DNA of 64,000 bases, from assembly GCA_965248265.1 (NCBI GenBank), contig CBDFJF010000002.1, positions 2,752,001-2,816,000 on the forward strand, in the 5' to 3' direction. Source of the DNA: Candidatus Latescibacterota bacterium (GTDB taxonomy: Bacteria; Latescibacterota; UBA2968; UBA8231). The first letter of the stretch is position 1. Each line of letters starts with the position of its first letter. This document shows positions 11,257 to 49,939 of the stretch, one piece after another. A program made the position numbers and the translations under genes. The notes under the pieces were generated by a model. That model did not search any database and had not been told where the DNA came from. It worked only from the letters and a program-made list of their open reading frames with translations.

Positions 11257-12579
11257 CATACTCTTAGGCGCAAACAAAGAGGGCTTCTCTTTCAGATATT
11301 CGGAGGTGTCCCATAAGACCCTCAAAGACGTGAGCACCACGTCTGCATCTGAAAAGGAGAAGCCCGTAAGAAATCTACTAAGATGACTTCGGCTGTCCAA
11401 CTCGATCAGGTCCTCGATATCTGTGTCGATGTCAGCAAGAGCAAACTCAATGTCTACTTCGAGATGGGCGATCAGACCGTCGATGACGAGTGGCCCAATA
11501 CGACCCGGCAGATCGAGAAGAAGCTGCGAGCCTGTGGGCGCTTGGCGAGAGAGCACGGCTTCAAATCACTGCGAGTCATCTGCGAGCCTTCAGGCGGATA
11601 CCAGGACAAGCTGTTGCGCACAGCACGACGACTCGGTCACCTGACGGCCTACGTCAACGGCGAGGCGGTTGCCAAATTTCGTGTCGTCGAGACCAATGAC
11701 GGCGGCAAGACGGATCTCAAAGACCCGCACATCATCAATACGCTGGCGCGGCTCAATAAAGTCCTCCGGCATCGAGATCTACCTGAAGAGTATGAGCTGC
11801 TGCGCAAATGCGGCGTCCTCTATGAGAGGGCAGACCGAGCTCTCATGGCGGTGCGCTGCCGACTGCACCGCGTGCTGATGGAGCTGTATTGCGACTTCTC
11901 CTTCACCAAGAGCTTTCTCTACAGCACCTCGGGGCGCGCCTTGATCAGCAGGGGAGCCTTCGGACGAGGCCAGGCACAGGCCTTGAAGGCCTCCGCTAAA
12001 GCCTCCTTCGCGCTCACTCATCGCAGTCGGCACTTGTCCCTGGAGATTCGCTTCGTCATGGAGCGCGTCAACCTCCTCATCGAGCAGATCGTGCAACTCG
12101 ACGAACACCTGCAAGATCTCATGACCGAACAGCAGAGCCTTCTGCGGTCCGTCCCAGGTCTCGGGCCGTGTGGGCACCGACCATCCTGGCCGAGATCCTG
12201 CCTGTGTTTCATCCCGAGGATCAGCATGGCGCTCGCAAGTTCGTCGCCACCGCTGGCCTCGACGTCAAGCAGTTCGACAGTGGCGATGTGGAGGGTCGCG
12301 GCAGAATGTCCAAGCGCGGCAGCCGCTACCTGCGCACCGCCGTCATGCAGGCCTCAGAGATCGCCGTCTTCAAGAGTCACGACCCGCTCTTCACCCAGGT
12401 CTATCAGCGACACATTGATCGCGGCAAGCACCACCTCGTCGCTCTCACCCACGTCGCCAACAAGATGCTCCACGTCGTCTTCAGTGTCCTCAAGAACAAC
12501 CGTCCCTACACACCTATCCTCAACTGAACGGAGACCAGATATTTGCCCACGACTGGTGTTGACATGTTACCGCTTGTCT
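11257..12579 (+). mobile_element. Chimeric, frameshifted IS110-family element
   Basis: N-terminal DEDD domain (CVDVSK, CEPSG, KTDLKD) of one IS110 is fused near 11945 to a 3' half homologous to 34795-35370. Frameshift near 12168. Long imperfect inverted repeat 11281-11365 in the leader. Right end TTGACA-13 nt-CT ends at 12579. Confidence 0.85.
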
Positions 12580-12998
12580 ATACGTCCGGGCAGGACAGTA
12601 ACAGAGCGAGGTTGGTGATCGTGCGAGACAACAAGATGAGGTAGCGTGTGCGAGCAGGCATTGTCGTCTTCCTTTCGACCTGATTGATGCGATTCCGCCG
12701 TCGCCTGGCGCGCACTCAATGCAATGGTGCTCTTTCGCGCGCCAAGCGCTCTGCCGAAAAGCATGCAACCAGCAGAAACTAAACAGAAAACTATGGAACG
12801 AATAGTGGGGTTGGCTCTTAGACGCGCAGCAAAGGCTACGGCGGAGACTTGCCCGACGATCTGCCTCCGAAGCCGCATGTGGGTCCGGATCCGATGATCG
12901 TACGGCCTGTGCGAGTGAATCCGCCTTGACACAGTGCCCATAATGGTCCTTCATAGTGTAGTCGGTGCGAATGTTTCCCGAACGAGGGTTTTCCGACC

Positions 12999-17551: not shown

Positions 17552-17634
17552 CGCGGCGTCCTGGAAGCAGGATCGTTAACGATCAAAGCCAGAGCCTTAG
17601 TCTGGAACACTTCATGGGAGATCCGAATGACCCT

Positions 17635-17679
17635 CGCAGGGCCAGACCTACCCGAAGTGGTCCGCACCTATTATACGAG
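17635..17679 (-). mobile_element. Orphan IS110 left-end remnant
   Basis: cagacctacccgaagtggtc.gcac.tattatacgag matches 36244-36280. Confidence 0.8.
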
Positions 17680-17838
17680 GACAAATAAGTGGCGTTATGG
17701 TGAGTTTAGATCCGTGTGGGCAGTGGTGTCGAGCGAATCAATGAATCTTTTTGAACGGCGGAATGCGGGGTTGAGGCCATCGACGGGCATTCCGAAGGAG
17801 AAGAATCCAGGGCTGAGCGGTGGTTTTTCCCGTTTTTC
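17678..17838 (-). mobile_element. IS91-family oriIS end (variant B)
   Basis: aggacaaataagtggcgttatggtgagtttagatc shared with 28168 and 47203; the 47.2-kb copy is contiguous with a transposase C-terminus. Confidence 0.8.
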
Positions 17839-25836: not shown

Positions 25837-27166
25837 TGCAGCAACCGGGTGCAGCAACCGGGCTGATAGGTAACAGTCTAAACCGGGTTGATGGGTGACA
25901 CTATTGTTTTGATTGAATTCACTCCCGTACGATCATGTCCCTCTCGTCGACGGTGGCTAGGAGGACGGTGTTGAAGTAGATGGCCCAGACGCCGTCGTCG
26001 ATCTCCTCGAGACCGATGTCGAGATGCTTGAGAGACTGAGCGATGAAGATGAGCTTGTGGCCGAGGCGTATGGTCCCGGCTCGGGTGACGTGCTTGATGA
26101 CGAAGTGACCGGGGTACTCAATGGTCGGCATGCGGCCGGGATAGGGCCGGGGTGATGGGTGGTACCGGGAGCCAGGAGTCTTGCCGTTGAGGGCGTCATG
26201 GGGACGCTCGTCGTTGTAGAGCTGTCGGAAGCGCTGGAAGGATCGCTGCTGGGCGGCCTTGTTGGCGGCGGGTGGCCGACAGGTAGCGGCCTTCAAGGTG
26301 CGATGCATGCGTTCGTGGGCGCCATTTTCCTGCGGCGATGCCGGGCGGATCCGCTGGTGCACGATGCCGAGCCTCATCCACCAAACGTTGAGTCGGCATA
26401 GCCCATGCAATCCTCTGGAAGCAAAGGGAACGCCGTTGTCGGTGCGAATGGCCTGAGGCAGGCCGAATTCGCGGAAGGCTCTCTCGAAGACCGGACGCGC
26501 ATGCAAGGTCTTGATGTCGGGCAGGGCGCGGCAGGTCAGGAGATAGCGAGTGTGCTGATCGCTGATGGTGAGAGGGAAACACCAAACTCCGTTCTTGGTA
26601 GGAAATTGGCCTTTGAAGTCGGCCGTCCACAGATCGTTGGGGTTGTCGGTGGTCGGCGGCACGGCTCCGGGGTGCTGACGTGGGCGTCGTCGTCGTCGCT
26701 TCTTCACCAGGCCTTCGCGCACCAGCAGATCGCCTGCCGTACTGACCGCCGGCCAGGAGCAGATGTGCGGATGTCGAGGCGCCAGCCAGTCCAACAGTTT
26801 GTTCGGTCCCCAATCGGGGTGCCGTGTGCGCGCTCCGAGAATGAGCTCGGCAATCTCTGGCGCCATGCGATGCGGACAGGTGTGGGGCGCGTGACTGCGG
26901 TCCTGTAACCCGGGCACCCCCTCTTCGGCGTGCCGCTGAAGCCACTTGTATCCGGTTTTGCGGCTGATCCCGTATCGCTCGCACAGCTCCGCTCTCGAGT
27001 AGTGCCCGCGCTGATCGTCGGCGATAAATCGCTTACGTTGTTCCATGGGTGCTGTCTCCATCCAGGGCATCGACCAACCTCCCAATTGGGGTTGGTCAAA
27101 AAGTAGAAGGAGTGTCACCCATCAACCCGGTCAGATGTGTTACCAATCTACCCGGTTTGTACCACA
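25837..27166 (-). mobile_element. IS481-family insertion sequence
   Basis: Perfect 20-bp subterminal IR (25883-25902 / 27111-27130); TGT end at 27166; 13-bp tandem duplication at the other end. Confidence 0.88.
25919..27070 (-). CDS. IS481-family DDE transposase
   Basis: MPW start, HTH (GISRKTGYKW), WTADFKG, IRTDNG, NGAHERMHRTLK. Confidence 0.93.
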   Translation of the reverse strand: MPWMETAPMEQRKRFIADDQRGHYSRAELCERYGISRKTGYKWLQRHAEEGVPGLQDRSHAPHTCPHRMAPEIAELILGARTRHPDWGPNKLLDWLAPRHPHICSWPAVSTAGDLLVREGLVKKRRRRRPRQHPGAVPPTTDNPNDLWTADFKGQFPTKNGVWCFPLTISDQHTRYLLTCRALPDIKTLHARPVFERAFREFGLPQAIRTDNGVPFASRGLHGLCRLNVWWMRLGIVHQRIRPASPQENGAHERMHRTLKAATCRPPAANKAAQQRSFQRFRQLYNDERPHDALNGKTPGSRYHPSPRPYPGRMPTIEYPGHFVIKHVTRAGTIRLGHKLIFIAQSLKHLDIGLEEIDDGVWAIYFNTVLLATVDERDMIVRE

Positions 27167-28162: not shown

Positions 28163-28335
28163 AGTATAGGACAAATAAGTGGCGTTATGGTGAGTTTAGA
28201 TCCGTGGGGGCCGTGGTGTCGAGCGAATCATGAATCTTTTTTTGAACGGCGGAAGGGGGGGTGGCCATCGACGGGCATTGCGAAGGAGAGGAATCCAGAG
28301 CTGAGCCTGTTTTGCACGGTTTTCAAACCGTTCGA
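28163..28335 (-). mobile_element. IS91-family oriIS end (variant B)
   Basis: Minus strand ends TTATTTGTCCTATAC, resembling ISCR oriIS (TTCCTATAC); homologous to 17678 and 47198. Confidence 0.82.
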
Positions 28336-34614: not shown

Positions 34615-34794
34615 ACAGCTTGCGCCATAGCTCCGAGACCACTTAGGGATGAGCCAGTGTTGGTGTGTTGAGGTGATTTTGCCATAGCCAGTATCTCCTT
34701 AAGTATCTGTCTAGCGGGGATTTCCCATATAACACGATGGTTAGACAAGCGGTAACATGTCAACGCCAATCGTGGGCAAATATCGAGTCTCCGT

Positions 34795-35985
34795 TCAGTT
34801 GAGGATAGGTGTGTAAGGTCTGTTGTTTTTAAGGACGCTGAAGACGACGTGGAGCATCTTGTTGGCGACATGGGTGAGTGCGACGAGGTGGTGCTTGCCG
34901 CGATCGATCTGCCGTTGATAGACCTGAGTGAAGAGCGGGTCATGGCTCTTGAAGACGGCGATCTCACAAGCCTGCATGACGGCGGTGCGCAGATAGCGGC
35001 TGCCACGTTTGGACATCCTGCCACGGCCGACTTGGTCGCCGCTGTCGAACTGCTTGACGTCGAGGCCAGCGGTGGCGACGAACTTGCGAGCACCGTGCTG
35101 ATCCTCGGGATGAAACACCGGCAAGATCTCGGCGAGGATCGTTGGCGCCCAGACGGGTCCAAGACCGGGAATGGATTGCAGGAGGGTCTGTTGCTCGCTC
35201 ACGAGATCCCGCAATTGTTCGTCGAGTTGCGCGATCTGATCGATGAGCAGGTTGACGCGCTCCATGACAAAGCGGATCTCCAGGGCCAGATGCTGCTGGC
35301 GATGCGTGAGCGCGAAGGAGTCCTTGGCAGCCGCCTTCAGGGCCTGGGCCTGATCCCGTCCGAAGGCCCCACGGCTGGCATCCTTCAACAGCCGCGTCAG
35401 GCGCCGAATGTCGACGCGGGCCAGCTCATCCGCAGTGGGAAATTGAGCCAGGACGGCGCGACTGGCAGCGCCGAACAGATCGGCGAAGTGCTGTCGGTAT
35501 TCGGGGAAGGCCAGGTCGAGGAGACTGACCAGATGGGTCTTCTCGGCCTTGACCGTGTGGGCGCACTGGAAGCGCAACCGGGTGAGGTCCCGTAGCTGAC
35601 GTACCTGGCGATCGGGAATAGCGCAGACCTTCAGGTGCGTTTCTCGCAGCAGGTGGGCGATCAACAGTGCATCGGCACTGTCGGTCTTGGTGCCACGGAT
35701 GGTGATATTACGCCGCGCTGCAACGACCAGGGGGTTGAGGACCTCGACCGAGTAGCCAGCCAGGATCAACACTTCGTACAGGACCATCCAGTAGTGCCCA
35801 GTGGCCTCCATGCCGACGCGGATGTCGGCGGCGAGTTGTTCGGTCTCGGCGAGACGTCGACACAACTGCTCAACCCCTTCGCGGGAGTGCTGCACGGCAA
35901 GATTTCGGAAGACGGCCTGGCCGTCCTGATCCAACAGTGTGGCGCGGTGACTGCGTTTCGCCACATCGATACCGAGAGTCCACAT
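34795..35985 (-). CDS. IS110-family recombinase/transposase
   Basis: GIDVAK, MEATG, KTDSAD (DEDD); GLD...DSG serine motif; AAGGAG RBS before MWTLG. Confidence 0.95.
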   Translation of the reverse strand: MWTLGIDVAKRSHRATLLDQDGQAVFRNLAVQHSREGVEQLCRRLAETEQLAADIRVGMEATGHYWMVLYEVLILAGYSVEVLNPLVVAARRNITIRGTKTDSADALLIAHLLRETHLKVCAIPDRQVRQLRDLTRLRFQCAHTVKAEKTHLVSLLDLAFPEYRQHFADLFGAASRAVLAQFPTADELARVDIRRLTRLLKDASRGAFGRDQAQALKAAAKDSFALTHRQQHLALEIRFVMERVNLLIDQIAQLDEQLRDLVSEQQTLLQSIPGLGPVWAPTILAEILPVFHPEDQHGARKFVATAGLDVKQFDSGDQVGRGRMSKRGSRYLRTAVMQACEIAVFKSHDPLFTQVYQRQIDRGKHHLVALTHVANKMLHVVFSVLKNNRPYTPILN

Positions 35986-35999
35986 TGGACGAGCTCCTT

Positions 36000-36265
36000 G
36001 GTCAAGAGACCGAAGCTGCCCACGATCGGGTAACACCAGCTGGCACATCCTCGTAGCCAGATCAGGGAACATGGGTCCCATCAAGCGGTAAGTGCATGTG
36101 CTGGCGCGTATGGCGTTCTATCCGAGAGGACCGAGCCTCGAGGCACGAATAGCCAACCCCAGCAGCTTCACTGATCTAGGATTGCCTCACTGCATCAGAA
36201 AAGCAAGCACTGAGTGCACGCAGCTGGTCGGTGCCCCGCAGGTCAGACCTACCCGAAGTGGTCTG
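36000..36265 (-). ncRNA. Predicted IS110 bridge RNA (boundaries approximate)
   Basis: Left-end noncoding region. Loop with TTACCGCTTG and TACGAG matches the donor junction; upstream loop carries TATTCGT and GGATAG. Confidence 0.7.
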
Positions 36266-36278
36266 CACTTATTATACG

Positions 36279-36378
36279 AGGATAAATAAGGGCCCGTTAT
36301 CGGTAGTCAAACCCCTCGAAGGCGTCGGCCTGCCGTCACGGGCACCGCCGATCGCCCCCGCACGCGCCAATCCCCAGC
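36279..36378 (-). mobile_element. oriIS tip (variant E) followed by an inverted 60-bp transposase scrap
   Basis: aggataaataagggcccgttatcggtagtcaa resembles variant A and 41876; 36320-36378 is an approximate reverse complement of 23762-23820. Confidence 0.7.
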
Positions 36379-36576
36379 ATGGTTAGGCACGATAGGCAGT
36401 AATTATGGCTAGTTTGGATGCCTCAGGGTCTTGATGTCGCGTGGACCTGGCGCTTTTGTGAGCGGCGCATTTCGATTTTGCGCGCCAGCAACTGACACCA
36501 GGACAGACGATGCGGACAGGGCCCGTGGGACGATTCGAGCATGAGAGACCGCGGCTTCAACTCGGTCACGGTAGGC

Positions 36577-37682: not shown

Positions 37683-37835
37683 CGTATAGGACCGATAAGG
37701 GGCAATATCATTAGTCTATGACGGCAGAGGTGGAGTGTCGAGAGGGATTGTGAGCCAGGCGTAGAGCAGCGGATTGGTGCGGCGAGCGATGGGCGAGTGG
37801 ATTGGGCCTCCGAGTGCACCGACGGGTGCTTTGAA
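37683..37835 (-). mobile_element. IS91-family oriIS end (variant D)
   Basis: Near-identical to 44052-44175; minus strand ends TTATCGGTCCTATACGT. Confidence 0.82.
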
Positions 37836-48219: not shown

Positions 48220-49939
48220 CGCATAGTGAGGATAAACAGCATTATCGGTAGTCAGTCAAGGTGTTTTGGGCTTTTTCGATTGCGTTGAGGGCCGTGCTTT
48301 TGCGTTGATCGTGGTGCGGTGAACGATGGGGCAGCGGATAGGGTGCCCGGATCAGCGCTTGCGGGCGCAGCGGCAGCTGTCAGCGAGAGATGGGGACGCA
48401 GCGCTGTCTGGGGTGGGGCTCAGGCGGCAAAGTCGAACTCGTGTTGGGATCGGGCCGTGCCGGAGCGATGGGCGGCGCGCGCGACGGCAGGCCGACACCC
48501 TCCAGGTAGCGCTGGATCGAGCCGGGCTCGGTGAGGGCGGCGACAATCCTCATGTGGCCGCCGCAAGCGGGGCACACGGTAACGTCTATTCGAAAAACTC
48601 TCCGGAGGAGGTCAGCCCAGGCCAGGCGGTGCCGGCGTTGGGCGGGGGTGGGCTCCGCAGTATGCGTACAGGGGTTCGCTTCGGGGGCCCCTTCCTTCGG
48701 GCTCGGTACGATCCGTGCCCGGTCGGCGGCGTTGGGTGCCAGGACGCCGTGATAGCGCACCAGGTTGAGGCGCCGCGGCGGTACCAGGGCGGCCAGTTTC
48801 TCAATCAATTCTTGCGGCGAGAGTTCAATTCGATAAGTGCCGTCGGACCAGACCGTTTTCAGGTCAAAGGCCACTCTCTCGGCATCCAGGATCTGCAGTC
48901 GGCCCGCTGCCAGCGGCGGTCGATTGACGTAGCGGCACAGCCTTTCCAGGCGGGTGCGATCGGCGGCCTGCACGCGGGTGGCCGCATGCAGGGAGAAACC
49001 GCGCGCGGCGAAGCACAACGGACCGGTGCGGATGCCCTGTTGGGGATCGAGCAGACGCCGGCGCACGGGCTGGCCGGCGCGCTCGCCGGTGGCTACCTGG
49101 CCCTGGATCGAAGCCGCCGTGATCGTGGCCAGCAGCGGCTCCTGCTCCATGAGCAGATCGGTATTGCTCTCTTCCAACAGGCCGCGCCGTTGCAGCAGGA
49201 GCACCACCCGTTGGGCCGTGGTCTCGACGATCTGTTGCACGTCGTCGTCGCTCAGTGGTGGCGCCGGCACGAATTCCGGACCGTCCTCGCCGTCGACGTA
49301 GACACTGTCGATCATGAGGACATGGTTGTGGGGATTGAGGTTTAAAGCAGAACCGAATCGCTGCACGAAGGTGACTGAGCCGCAGCGACTGTCTTCATAA
49401 CCCTGCTCCCGTGCCTGACGACGATACCAGCCGTAGACGACACGCAGGAAGACGGCCAGCACCGCCCCGACCAGCTCTTTGTCCCATGCCAGGCGATAGC
49501 GGATCTCGTACGGCAGGCTGAGCACCCACTGCCGCACCGGTACCTGAGGCAGGACCTCGTCGGTGAGTCGGGCGGCGGTGTCCGCCATCCGTCGTCCCAT
49601 ACAACTCGGGCAGAAGGAACGTCGTTGGCACGAGAACGCGACGACGCGATCCTTGCAGCAGTCCTTGCACCGCACCCGCAGAAACCCGTGAGCGAGAATT
49701 CCGCACCGGAGATAGGCGTGCAGCTCGTCCTCGACGTGGATCGGCAGCTGCCGATCCGAGGTGCGGGTGCGCTCGATGAAGGTCTCCATGTGCTCGGCCA
49801 GCACCTGGTAGAGGGGGTCTGTCTCGGGTGTGCGGGCAGGCTCGCCAGCGACGCAGACACATCTTCCCCGGTGTAACAACTGCTACTCGCAAAATGGCTC
49901 GGGTGTCAGAATTCTTCGGGCATGGCATGCCGCCGCATA
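48220..49939 (-). mobile_element. Near-complete IS91/ISCR-family rolling-circle element
   Basis: oriIS hairpin GATAA-N6-TTATC at left; palindromic ggcatggcatgcc terIS candidate at right; CGCATA at both boundaries; no terminal IRs. Confidence 0.85.
48380..49879 (-). CDS. IS91-family HUH transposase
   Basis: Zn-binding CG...C..C...SC..R.FCPSC, NPHNH (HUH), LCRYVNRP, RYHG, C-terminal CPACGG; start uncertain. Confidence 0.93.
   Translation of the reverse strand: MLHRGRCVCVAGEPARTPETDPLYQVLAEHMETFIERTRTSDRQLPIHVEDELHAYLRCGILAHGFLRVRCKDCCKDRVVAFSCQRRSFCPSCMGRRMADTAARLTDEVLPQVPVRQWVLSLPYEIRYRLAWDKELVGAVLAVFLRVVYGWYRRQAREQGYEDSRCGSVTFVQRFGSALNLNPHNHVLMIDSVYVDGEDGPEFVPAPPLSDDDVQQIVETTAQRVVLLLQRRGLLEESNTDLLMEQEPLLATITAASIQGQVATGERAGQPVRRRLLDPQQGIRTGPLCFAARGFSLHAATRVQAADRTRLERLCRYVNRPPLAAGRLQILDAERVAFDLKTVWSDGTYRIELSPQELIEKLAALVPPRRLNLVRYHGVLAPNAADRARIVPSPKEGAPEANPCTHTAEPTPAQRRHRLAWADLLRRVFRIDVTVCPACGGHMRIVAALTEPGSIQRYLEGVGLPSRAPPIAPARPDPNTSSTLPPEPHPRQRCVPISR

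Follow-up and report, generated by a model that had tools for sequence, protein, structure and literature searches.

Structure of the IS110-family element

The window analysed here is a stretch of 64,000 nucleotides (nt) from a 7.3-Mb Candidatus Latescibacterota genome (genome G000, contig C2, positions 2752001-2816000), and coordinates without a contig prefix are window positions. It carries an insertion sequence (IS) of the IS110 family, here called copy A, which lies within the tip of a conserved end of IS91/ISCR-like elements. IS110-family elements are known to target repetitive extragenic palindromic (REP) sequences, attC sites and the inverted repeats of Tn21. IS91/ISCR elements are important gene-capturing vehicles, and their own mobility is hard to study. 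The features of copy A and its junctions are as follows:

34743..36280, minus strand: IS110-family element copy A, 1538 bp including both CT cores; both ends set by genome BLAST and alignment of the copies
36279-36280, read on the minus strand: CT core at the left end
34743-34744, read on the minus strand: CT core at the right end
34795..35985, minus strand: intact recombinase gene, 396 aa (Pfam, NCBIfam and structure alignment)
35986..36278, minus strand: non-coding left end with the predicted bridge RNA, core at about 36030-36220 (RNAalifold)
36279..36315, minus strand: tip cut at CT by copy A (left flank), from the side of the IS91/ISCR-like end named oriIS below; nhmmer E 3.2e-3 genome-wide and 2.5e-7 among the flanks
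34737..34742, minus strand: right-flank hexamer completing the tip, of the form A-[A/T]-N-C-N-Y, as after CT in uninterrupted ends

Copy A was a complete IS110-family insertion sequence with one intact gene. Both of its junctions were spanned with 0 differences by contigs of four public sequencing runs from one sample, possibly the source sample. The recombinase matched the N-terminal, RuvC-like Pfam domain DEDD_Tnp_IS110 (2.6e-40) and the C-terminal domain Transposase_20 (2.1e-17), and it scored 231.9 bits against NCBIfam NF033542, 'IS110 family RNA-guided transposase' (cut-off 140). Moreover, both domains aligned to the solved ISCro4 and IS621 transposases (IS621 8wt6, E 4.8e-18). A CT core was present at both junctions of copy A and of the related copies B1 and B2, as well as at all right ends; the left junction of copy D read TT. 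Copy A fitted the IS110 subgroup, with a core dinucleotide on both sides and neither terminal inverted repeats nor a longer duplication. It did not fit the IS1111 subgroup, having 293 non-coding nt before the start codon, only 52 nt after the stop codon and no subterminal inverted repeats. An earlier, sequence-only reading of this DNA had drawn the element from 34743 to 36310. The start was retained, but the element stopped at 36280 and the last ~30 nt were flank; the strings quoted in that reading were all present at their places.

The conserved end of the IS91/ISCR-like elements

The element that was interrupted was characterized from a full-length gene in the window and from the conserved end that followed it:

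48380..49879, minus strand: full-length IS91/ISCR-like transposase gene, 499 aa (Pfam Y2_Tnp 6.5e-26, Zn_Tnp_IS91 2.3e-19)
48225..48269, minus strand: uninterrupted end of a full-length IS91/ISCR-like copy (nhmmer E 3.1e-6), 158 bp after the last aligned residue
28168..28214, minus strand: uninterrupted oriIS-like end (nhmmer E 2.4e-4)
37688..37731, minus strand: uninterrupted oriIS-like end, 'variant D' (nhmmer E 1.3e-4)

The top NCBIfam model for the transposase was ISCR_clade_Ia with 390.7 bits (cut-off 925), and the score against the IS91 equivalog was 106.2 bits (cut-off 125). Both scores were below their cut-offs; hence the element was named 'IS91/ISCR-like' and was given no clade name. 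A tblastn search of the genome with this protein returned 47 high-scoring segment pairs (HSPs) at E up to 1e-5 and 57 at 1e-3, most of which were short C-terminal fragments. Downstream of the C-terminal matches, at 150-300 bp from the stop codon, the DNA contained the same tip in uninterrupted form and in several sequence types. A profile built from 32 distinct tips was run over the whole genome with nhmmer and recognised 54 ends, 53 of them on contig C2. At the aligned tip, 50 ends had CT and were uninterrupted, and the other four passed into an IS110 left end (copies A, B1, B2 and F). The tip at copy D was too diverged for the profile at the threshold used. The uninterrupted site at 28165-28179, taken as the reference in the sequence-only reading, and its variant D both existed as such ends.

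The statements on published systems, among them the position of oriIS, are limited to the parts covered of the background literature (PMC11208160, PMC11187229, PMC13181058, PMC6218425, PMC5737581, PMC13750824, 10.1101/2025.10.25.684509, 10.64898/2026.08.14.744561). There, oriIS is placed downstream of the gene, at a distance of 167 bp for one IS91 element and inside a 232-bp region for ISCR1. IS91 required its terminal 82 bp and the adjacent tetranucleotide, and preferred a particular tetranucleotide beside oriIS. The conserved end described here was likewise placed downstream of the gene, and it is therefore called the oriIS-side end, an assignment by position only.

This assignment was weighed against the possibility that the ~50-nt repeat is a target of IS110 without being a functional rolling-circle origin, and is instead a termination end, a decayed repeat or an independent repeat. 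The end followed all six full-length IS91/ISCR-like transposase genes (6/6), one of these ends being interrupted by a second IS110-family element (IS110-2, below), and it did so at the distances reported for IS91 and ISCR1. A same-strand C-terminal transposase HSP was found upstream of 18 of the 54 ends, against ~0.1 expected by chance, with 158-482 bp (median 241.5) between the last aligned residue and CT; the 36 ends without a detectable fragment speak for a repeat of another kind, as do the transposase scores below both cut-offs. Many copies retained only this end and a 3' fragment of the transposase gene, as expected if replication starts there. Within a tip type, the last 4-5 bases varied while CT-A was constant, and the variable word had the form [A/T]-N-C-N-Y, like a preferred target word beside oriIS. 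The place of the nick is presumed from position only, and in the part covered of a 2018 paper the transposition of ISCR was given as undemonstrated to that date. On balance, a repeat that is not an origin was considered unlikely. A constant CT-A beside variable last bases points to a true IS91 boundary 1-2 nt after CT, in which case the remainder would be the preferred target word of IS91 itself. Two tips (near C2:1156234 and, on the minus strand, near 44.05 kb of the window) also carried a perfect tandem duplication of the last 18 or 11 nt.

Insertion sites of the IS110 copies in the genome

The BLAST search of the genome with copy A gave 12 HSPs at 10 places. These comprised copy A, the full copies B1 and B2 (~85% identical to A), copy D with an internal deletion, the remnants C, E, F and G, and the more distant relative H; a 50-bp fragment at C2:2282530-2282578 was kept outside the junction counts. 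Two remnants and their flanks lay in the window:

17631..17677, minus strand: remnant F, IS110 left end, ~47 nt (BLAST 85.7%)
17678..17724, minus strand: oriIS-like tip interrupted by remnant F (nhmmer E 3.1e-4)
11951..12580, plus strand: remnant C, the 3' 635 bp of a B-type IS110, 93.6-93.7% identical to B1/B2 and ending in the CT core
12581-12586, plus strand: tip hexamer after remnant C, read from the flank

Every readable junction was of the oriIS-tip kind. The five left junctions (A, B1, B2, D and F; 5/5) had the form ...ATAA-N6-8-TTAT-N4-7-CT and then the IS110 left end, and the eight right junctions (A, B1, B2, C, D, E, G and H; 8/8) continued after CT with A-[A/T]-N-C-N-Y. The 54 ends of ~50 nt make up ~0.04% of the 7.3 Mb, yet all five left junctions lay inside one; the chance of a right flank A-[A/T]-N-C is ~1/32 each, and it was seen in 8/8. 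Furthermore, the joined flanks of B1 and those of B2 were identical to uninterrupted ends elsewhere, which indicated that IS110 had entered an existing end and not the reverse.

The reverse order, in which IS91/ISCR-like elements inserted beside pre-existing IS110 ends, was accordingly regarded as extremely improbable. The published preference of IS91-family elements for a short specific target beside the oriIS end would accommodate it. It is opposed by the 50 of 54 ends that were uninterrupted and ran across CT into the same type of hexamer as lay beyond the IS110 right end. The two halves of the tip flanked IS110, one on each side, and the predicted guides of IS110 covered both sides.

The expectation of the sequence-only reading that joined flanks would restore an uninterrupted oriIS was thus borne out. 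Its central proposal, an IS110 bridge element aimed at the oriIS tip, was upheld by every readable junction in the genome, by the covarying guides described below and by the ISCR/IS91-like transposase. A second copy that it had assembled from flanks at 17678-17688 and 12580 dissolved into two unrelated remnants, F on the minus strand and C on the plus strand. As to its inference that the element splits the likely nick site, insertion beside the presumed nick site held; insertion in the site itself did not follow from the junctions, which lay 1-6 nt inside the inferred boundary.

Remnant G was a 94-bp right end at C2:2318253-2318346, and 22 nt past its tip hexamer an uninterrupted tip of the B2 type was present.

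Relatives and phylogeny

DNA searches detected relatives of the IS110 element in 10 genomes of a sample of 61 taken around G000 and in 8 of the family's 76 genomes, both counts including G000. Across all 76 family genomes, no left-end-bearing copies were found beyond those already seen. Scans of genome contigs and of metagenomes yielded four relatives at >=51% identity and eight at >=47%, respectively; the remaining rows among the best 80 of each scan were distant IS110s and were not used. In plasmid records, nothing above 38% identity was found.

Junctions of the oriIS-tip kind also occurred in four other genomes of the family and on one metagenome contig. Left flanks of the same kind of tip were read at G011/G015a, G008, G026 and L129, the flanks of G011 and G015a being identical. 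Moreover, B1, B2, G011/G015a and G026 had IS91 transposase 3' fragments on the same strand at a distance of 220-480 bp upstream (220-270 bp at G011/G015a and G026). The end profile recognised 7 of the 16 left flanks tested (A, B1, B2, D, G011/15a, G008 and L129) and 0 of 5 flanks from outside the oriIS clade. A maximum likelihood tree was computed from the C-terminal 202 residues of 20 rows; C, D and G015c had no HSP of at least 170 aa and were omitted. Copies A, B1 and B2 together with L129/L131, G008 and G026 formed one clade with support 95/99, among relatives with other targets.

An association inherited from a single ancestral insertion of IS110 in one IS91 end, spread later by IS91 transposition, segmental duplication or descent, would also place many copies at such ends. 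The identical flank of G011 and G015a, the grouping of IS91 ends in islands (53/54 on contig C2) and the non-independence of kin genomes are in keeping with it. It was judged very improbable, as the interrupted tips were of at least 5 types with differing upstream sequence and downstream DNA, the copies differed from one another by 15-30%, and their guides differed in step with their flanks.

The right flank of L129/L130 was read by eye; beyond the hexamer it resembled the zinc-binding N-terminus of another IS91-like transposase. On this reading, the interrupted tip would abut a further IS91 copy.

Predicted bridge RNA and its guides

The left end was aligned among the elements of this genome and their relatives, and it consisted of conserved blocks with short variable stretches between them. 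The RNAalifold consensus was calculated from 15 elements out of 17, with the exclusion of B2, because its sequence in this region equals that of B1, and of G015c, because of its truncated donor loop. The consensus had two internal loops bearing one hairpin apiece, in addition to a 5' stem and an outer stem, and 7 of its 34 predicted pairs had compensatory changes. The predicted layout is that described for the IS621 bridge RNA. In the IS621 model, the left guide reads in the sense of the left target and the right guide in the complementary sense to the right target; each pairing includes the core. A single-sequence fold of the left end of copy A was uninformative (z -1.36; the input included 31 nt of flank). 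Four guides were predicted in copy A:

36141..36154, minus strand: predicted left target guide, 5' side of the target-binding loop (own-flank scan)
36118..36126, minus strand: predicted right target guide, 3' side of the target-binding loop (own-flank scan)
36082..36094, minus strand: predicted left donor guide, in the same sense as the final right-end bases and conserved in all aligned relatives
36050..36056, minus strand: predicted right donor guide, the reverse complement of the core and the first left-end bases

The target guides were located by sliding the 9-nt left flank of each element, and the reverse complement of its 7-nt right flank, along its own left end. The top left match was located at one and the same position (anchor +17/18) in 9 of 15 elements, being unique in 3 and tied in 6, and the top reverse-complement match for the right flank fell at anchor +40 to +45 in all 12 of 12 elements, 7 of them unique. 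The left guides of G008 and G026 each matched their own left flank at 9/9 positions, and between these two elements guide and flank differed at the same two positions. More distant relatives had the same donor ends and other targets, one of them a palindromic repeat, and each target was matched by the guides of its own element; hence the guide places were correctly read.

The covariation of guides and flanks was evaluated by scoring the two guide places of each element against the flanks of every element, with permutation. For the nine elements of the oriIS group, the own sum was 108/144 against a permutation mean of 90.0 (standard deviation 4.25), and 1 of 20,000 permutations reached 108. After four more distant relatives were added (13 elements), the own sum was 157/208 against a mean of 121.8, which 0 of 20,000 reached; these counts are indicative and are not probabilities, because the set is small, its members are related, and B1 has the same guides as B2. 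Taken together, the anatomy, the insertion sites, the covariation and the monophyly make it very probable that copy A belongs to a lineage of IS110 bridge-RNA elements whose target loop is directed at the ~14 outermost nt on the oriIS side of IS91/ISCR-like rolling-circle elements.

Several observations weigh against this reading. With regard to the guides, those of copy A matched their own site at only 5/9 positions on the left and 5/7 on the right, no better than the flanks of other elements, and they fitted the empty ends at C2:2427693 (7/9 and 7/7) and C2:2467280 (8/9 and 6/7) better. B1 and B2 had one common guide set and yet occupied different tip types. The permutation count overstates the independence of elements that are few and related. 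An Rfam scan of window positions 34700-36400 at E up to 10 matched no family to the left end and gave only a chance lncRNA match. With regard to the ends, only 18/54 had a detectable transposase fragment, and the subterminal 'hairpin' of the tip was an invariant 4-bp inverted repeat with 6-8 nt spacing that gave no covariation either way. The end profile failed on the left flanks of G026, G015b and G015c; it also failed on that of the tandem G010 copy. With regard to activity, D, G008, G026 and G015b had internal deletions, and C, E, F and G were remnants. No RNA, circle or empty-site allele was seen. The locus was present in small shares in 18 further public runs; the contigs examined, those of the four runs from one sample, cannot show absence, and none of them joined across IS110 as an empty site would, nor was a circle junction listed.

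The left flank of copy A kept only ~37 nt of the tip and was joined to a transposase remnant in inverted orientation:

36315..36386, plus strand: 24-codon C-terminal IS91-like transposase remnant, inverted relative to the tip (tblastn, residues 452-478, 74% identity)

An off-target insertion, a later drift of the guides or an exchange between copies could each explain the mismatch. The left tip type of copy A continued elsewhere with another hexamer, which bears on a flank swap by homologous exchange. This difference does not decide for such a swap, because the final bases differ even among tips of one type.

IS110-2, a further element at the oriIS-like ends

A second IS110-family element, IS110-2, was of the IS1111-like kind and was found at the same type of end. 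Its full copy lay elsewhere on the contig, and a part of it lay in the window:

C2:2689531-2691121 (locus L209): IS110-2, 1591 bp, IS110 family, IS1111-like
11258..11946, plus strand: 5' part of IS110-2 fused to remnant C, 91% identical to C2:2690440-2691145, with the outer oriIS tip as its left flank

The 424-aa gene of IS110-2 encoded both Pfam domains and was followed by a 216-nt non-coding stretch; the element also had subterminal inverted repeats. In a full-length IS91/ISCR-like copy, it had entered the oriIS end ~20 nt further in, in opposite orientation, and was bordered by AT on each side. Tip sequences also contained three further left and two further right junctions of IS110-2. In the stretch after the gene, the best matches to the two flanks of the element were 34 nt apart; each scored 7/9, and equally good matches occurred elsewhere. 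These sites suggest that two DEDD lineages converged on the same IS91/ISCR-like end.

The segment at window 11258-12580 was a chimera in which the 5' 710 bp of IS110-2 were fused to the 3' 635 bp of a B-type IS110, with the joint near 11946-11951. The two recombinases fused there were only ~40% identical.

Proposed mechanism and comparison with known systems

In the mechanism proposed from these data, IS110 would excise as a circle. In this circle, the right end joined to the left end would make up a TTGACA-17-TATAAT promoter, from which the bridge RNA and the recombinase would be expressed. When the two ends of copy A were joined, TTGACA and TATAAT came to lie 17 nt apart across the junction, as a predicted promoter. 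The G010 chromosome held a right end-CT-left end junction of two IS110 copies (L006, G010:C2, at about locus position 1376), which was either a tandem or an integrated circle junction, and its -35 box was altered relative to that of copy A. The donor loop would pair with the circle junction, and the target loop would pair with ~7 bases before CT in the IS91 tip, with CT and with ~5 bases after it. The recombinase would then exchange strands at CT, so that IS110 would separate the last 1-6 bases of the IS91 end from the rest of it.

Such an insertion probably separates the IS91 origin from the place where it is cleaved. By analogy with IS91, which needs the terminal 82 bp and the adjacent tetranucleotide, an insertion of 1.5 kb should disable the origin. 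The sequence-only reading had proposed that the element may immobilise captured cargo units or hitch-hike with them; hitch-hiking seems less likely, because the interrupted origin would have to stay active. IS110 would gain a multi-copy target, dozens of IS91 ends, that costs the host nothing.

Among the closest known systems is IS621 of E. coli, which has the same two recombinase domains and CT core, and whose left-end RNA has target and donor loops and guide senses like those predicted for copy A. Its protein is only distantly related to that of copy A, and its natural target is a REP sequence, whereas that of copy A is the IS91/ISCR-like tip. Insertion sequences with DEDD recombinases on transposon ends resemble copy A in specialising on the end of another transposon; they differ in having subterminal inverted repeats and a guide RNA downstream of the gene, whereas copy A lacks these repeats and its predicted RNA is in the left end. 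Furthermore, their host is a DDE transposon with inverted repeats, and the host of copy A is a rolling-circle HUH element. The IS1111-attC group (ISKpn4, ISPst6 and relatives) shares the site-specific parasitism of a recombination site of another mobile system. However, it belongs to a different subgroup and has a different target, since the attC of integron cassettes is a recombination site and not a replication-origin end. The target element itself resembles ISCR1 and IS91 in its Y2 HUH transposase with a zinc-binding N-terminus, in the conserved end a few hundred bp downstream and in what may be a preferred short word beside that end. It differs from them in its scores below the NCBIfam cut-offs and in the word, [A/T]-N-C-N-Y and not GTTC or CTTG, and it is known from sequence alone.

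In the parts of the literature covered, no IS110 or IS1111 element targeting an IS91/ISCR end was described; supplementary target tables, such as that of PMC11208160, which may list such elements, were outside this coverage. The view of the sequence-only reading that targeting of a rolling-circle oriIS had not been described agreed with this search. Whereas the mechanism has been described before, the class of target appears to be new, namely the end of a rolling-circle HUH transposon at which its origin lies. The results show one mobile element specialised on the replication-origin end of another, with that end assigned as above. A natural element that recognises and splits the IS91/ISCR origin tip can serve as a marker for the location of functional tips, and this IS110 lineage may act as a natural inactivator of IS91/ISCR origins. 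Moreover, bridge RNAs that differ in step with their targets are natural variants for the study of specificity evolution, including the copy in a poorly matched site.

A broader scenario is offered only tentatively and is rather doubtful as a whole. In this scenario, the IS110 lineage would be a specialised hyperparasite that disables IS91/ISCR origins 1-6 nt from the cleavage site, its guides would track the diversifying tip types, and the IS1111-type lineage would have converged on the same 45-nt end. If true, it would amount to a natural RNA-guided 'anti-transposon' arms race and would provide ready-made guides against ISCR-type origins.

Surroundings of copy A in the window

Between 16306 and 48269, the window contained nine ends, eight of them on the minus strand, which were parted by units of 1-10 kb with short transposase 3' fragments. 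The units carried genes for PhyH-type dioxygenases, GFO/IDH/MocA oxidoreductases, an alcohol dehydrogenase and glycosidase-like proteins. Together with the islands on contig C2, this part of the window resembles a region of ISCR-style accretion. An IS481-type transposase gene (rve, HTH_32 and LZ_Tnp_IS481) was located at 25919-27118 on the minus strand, between two oriIS-like ends.

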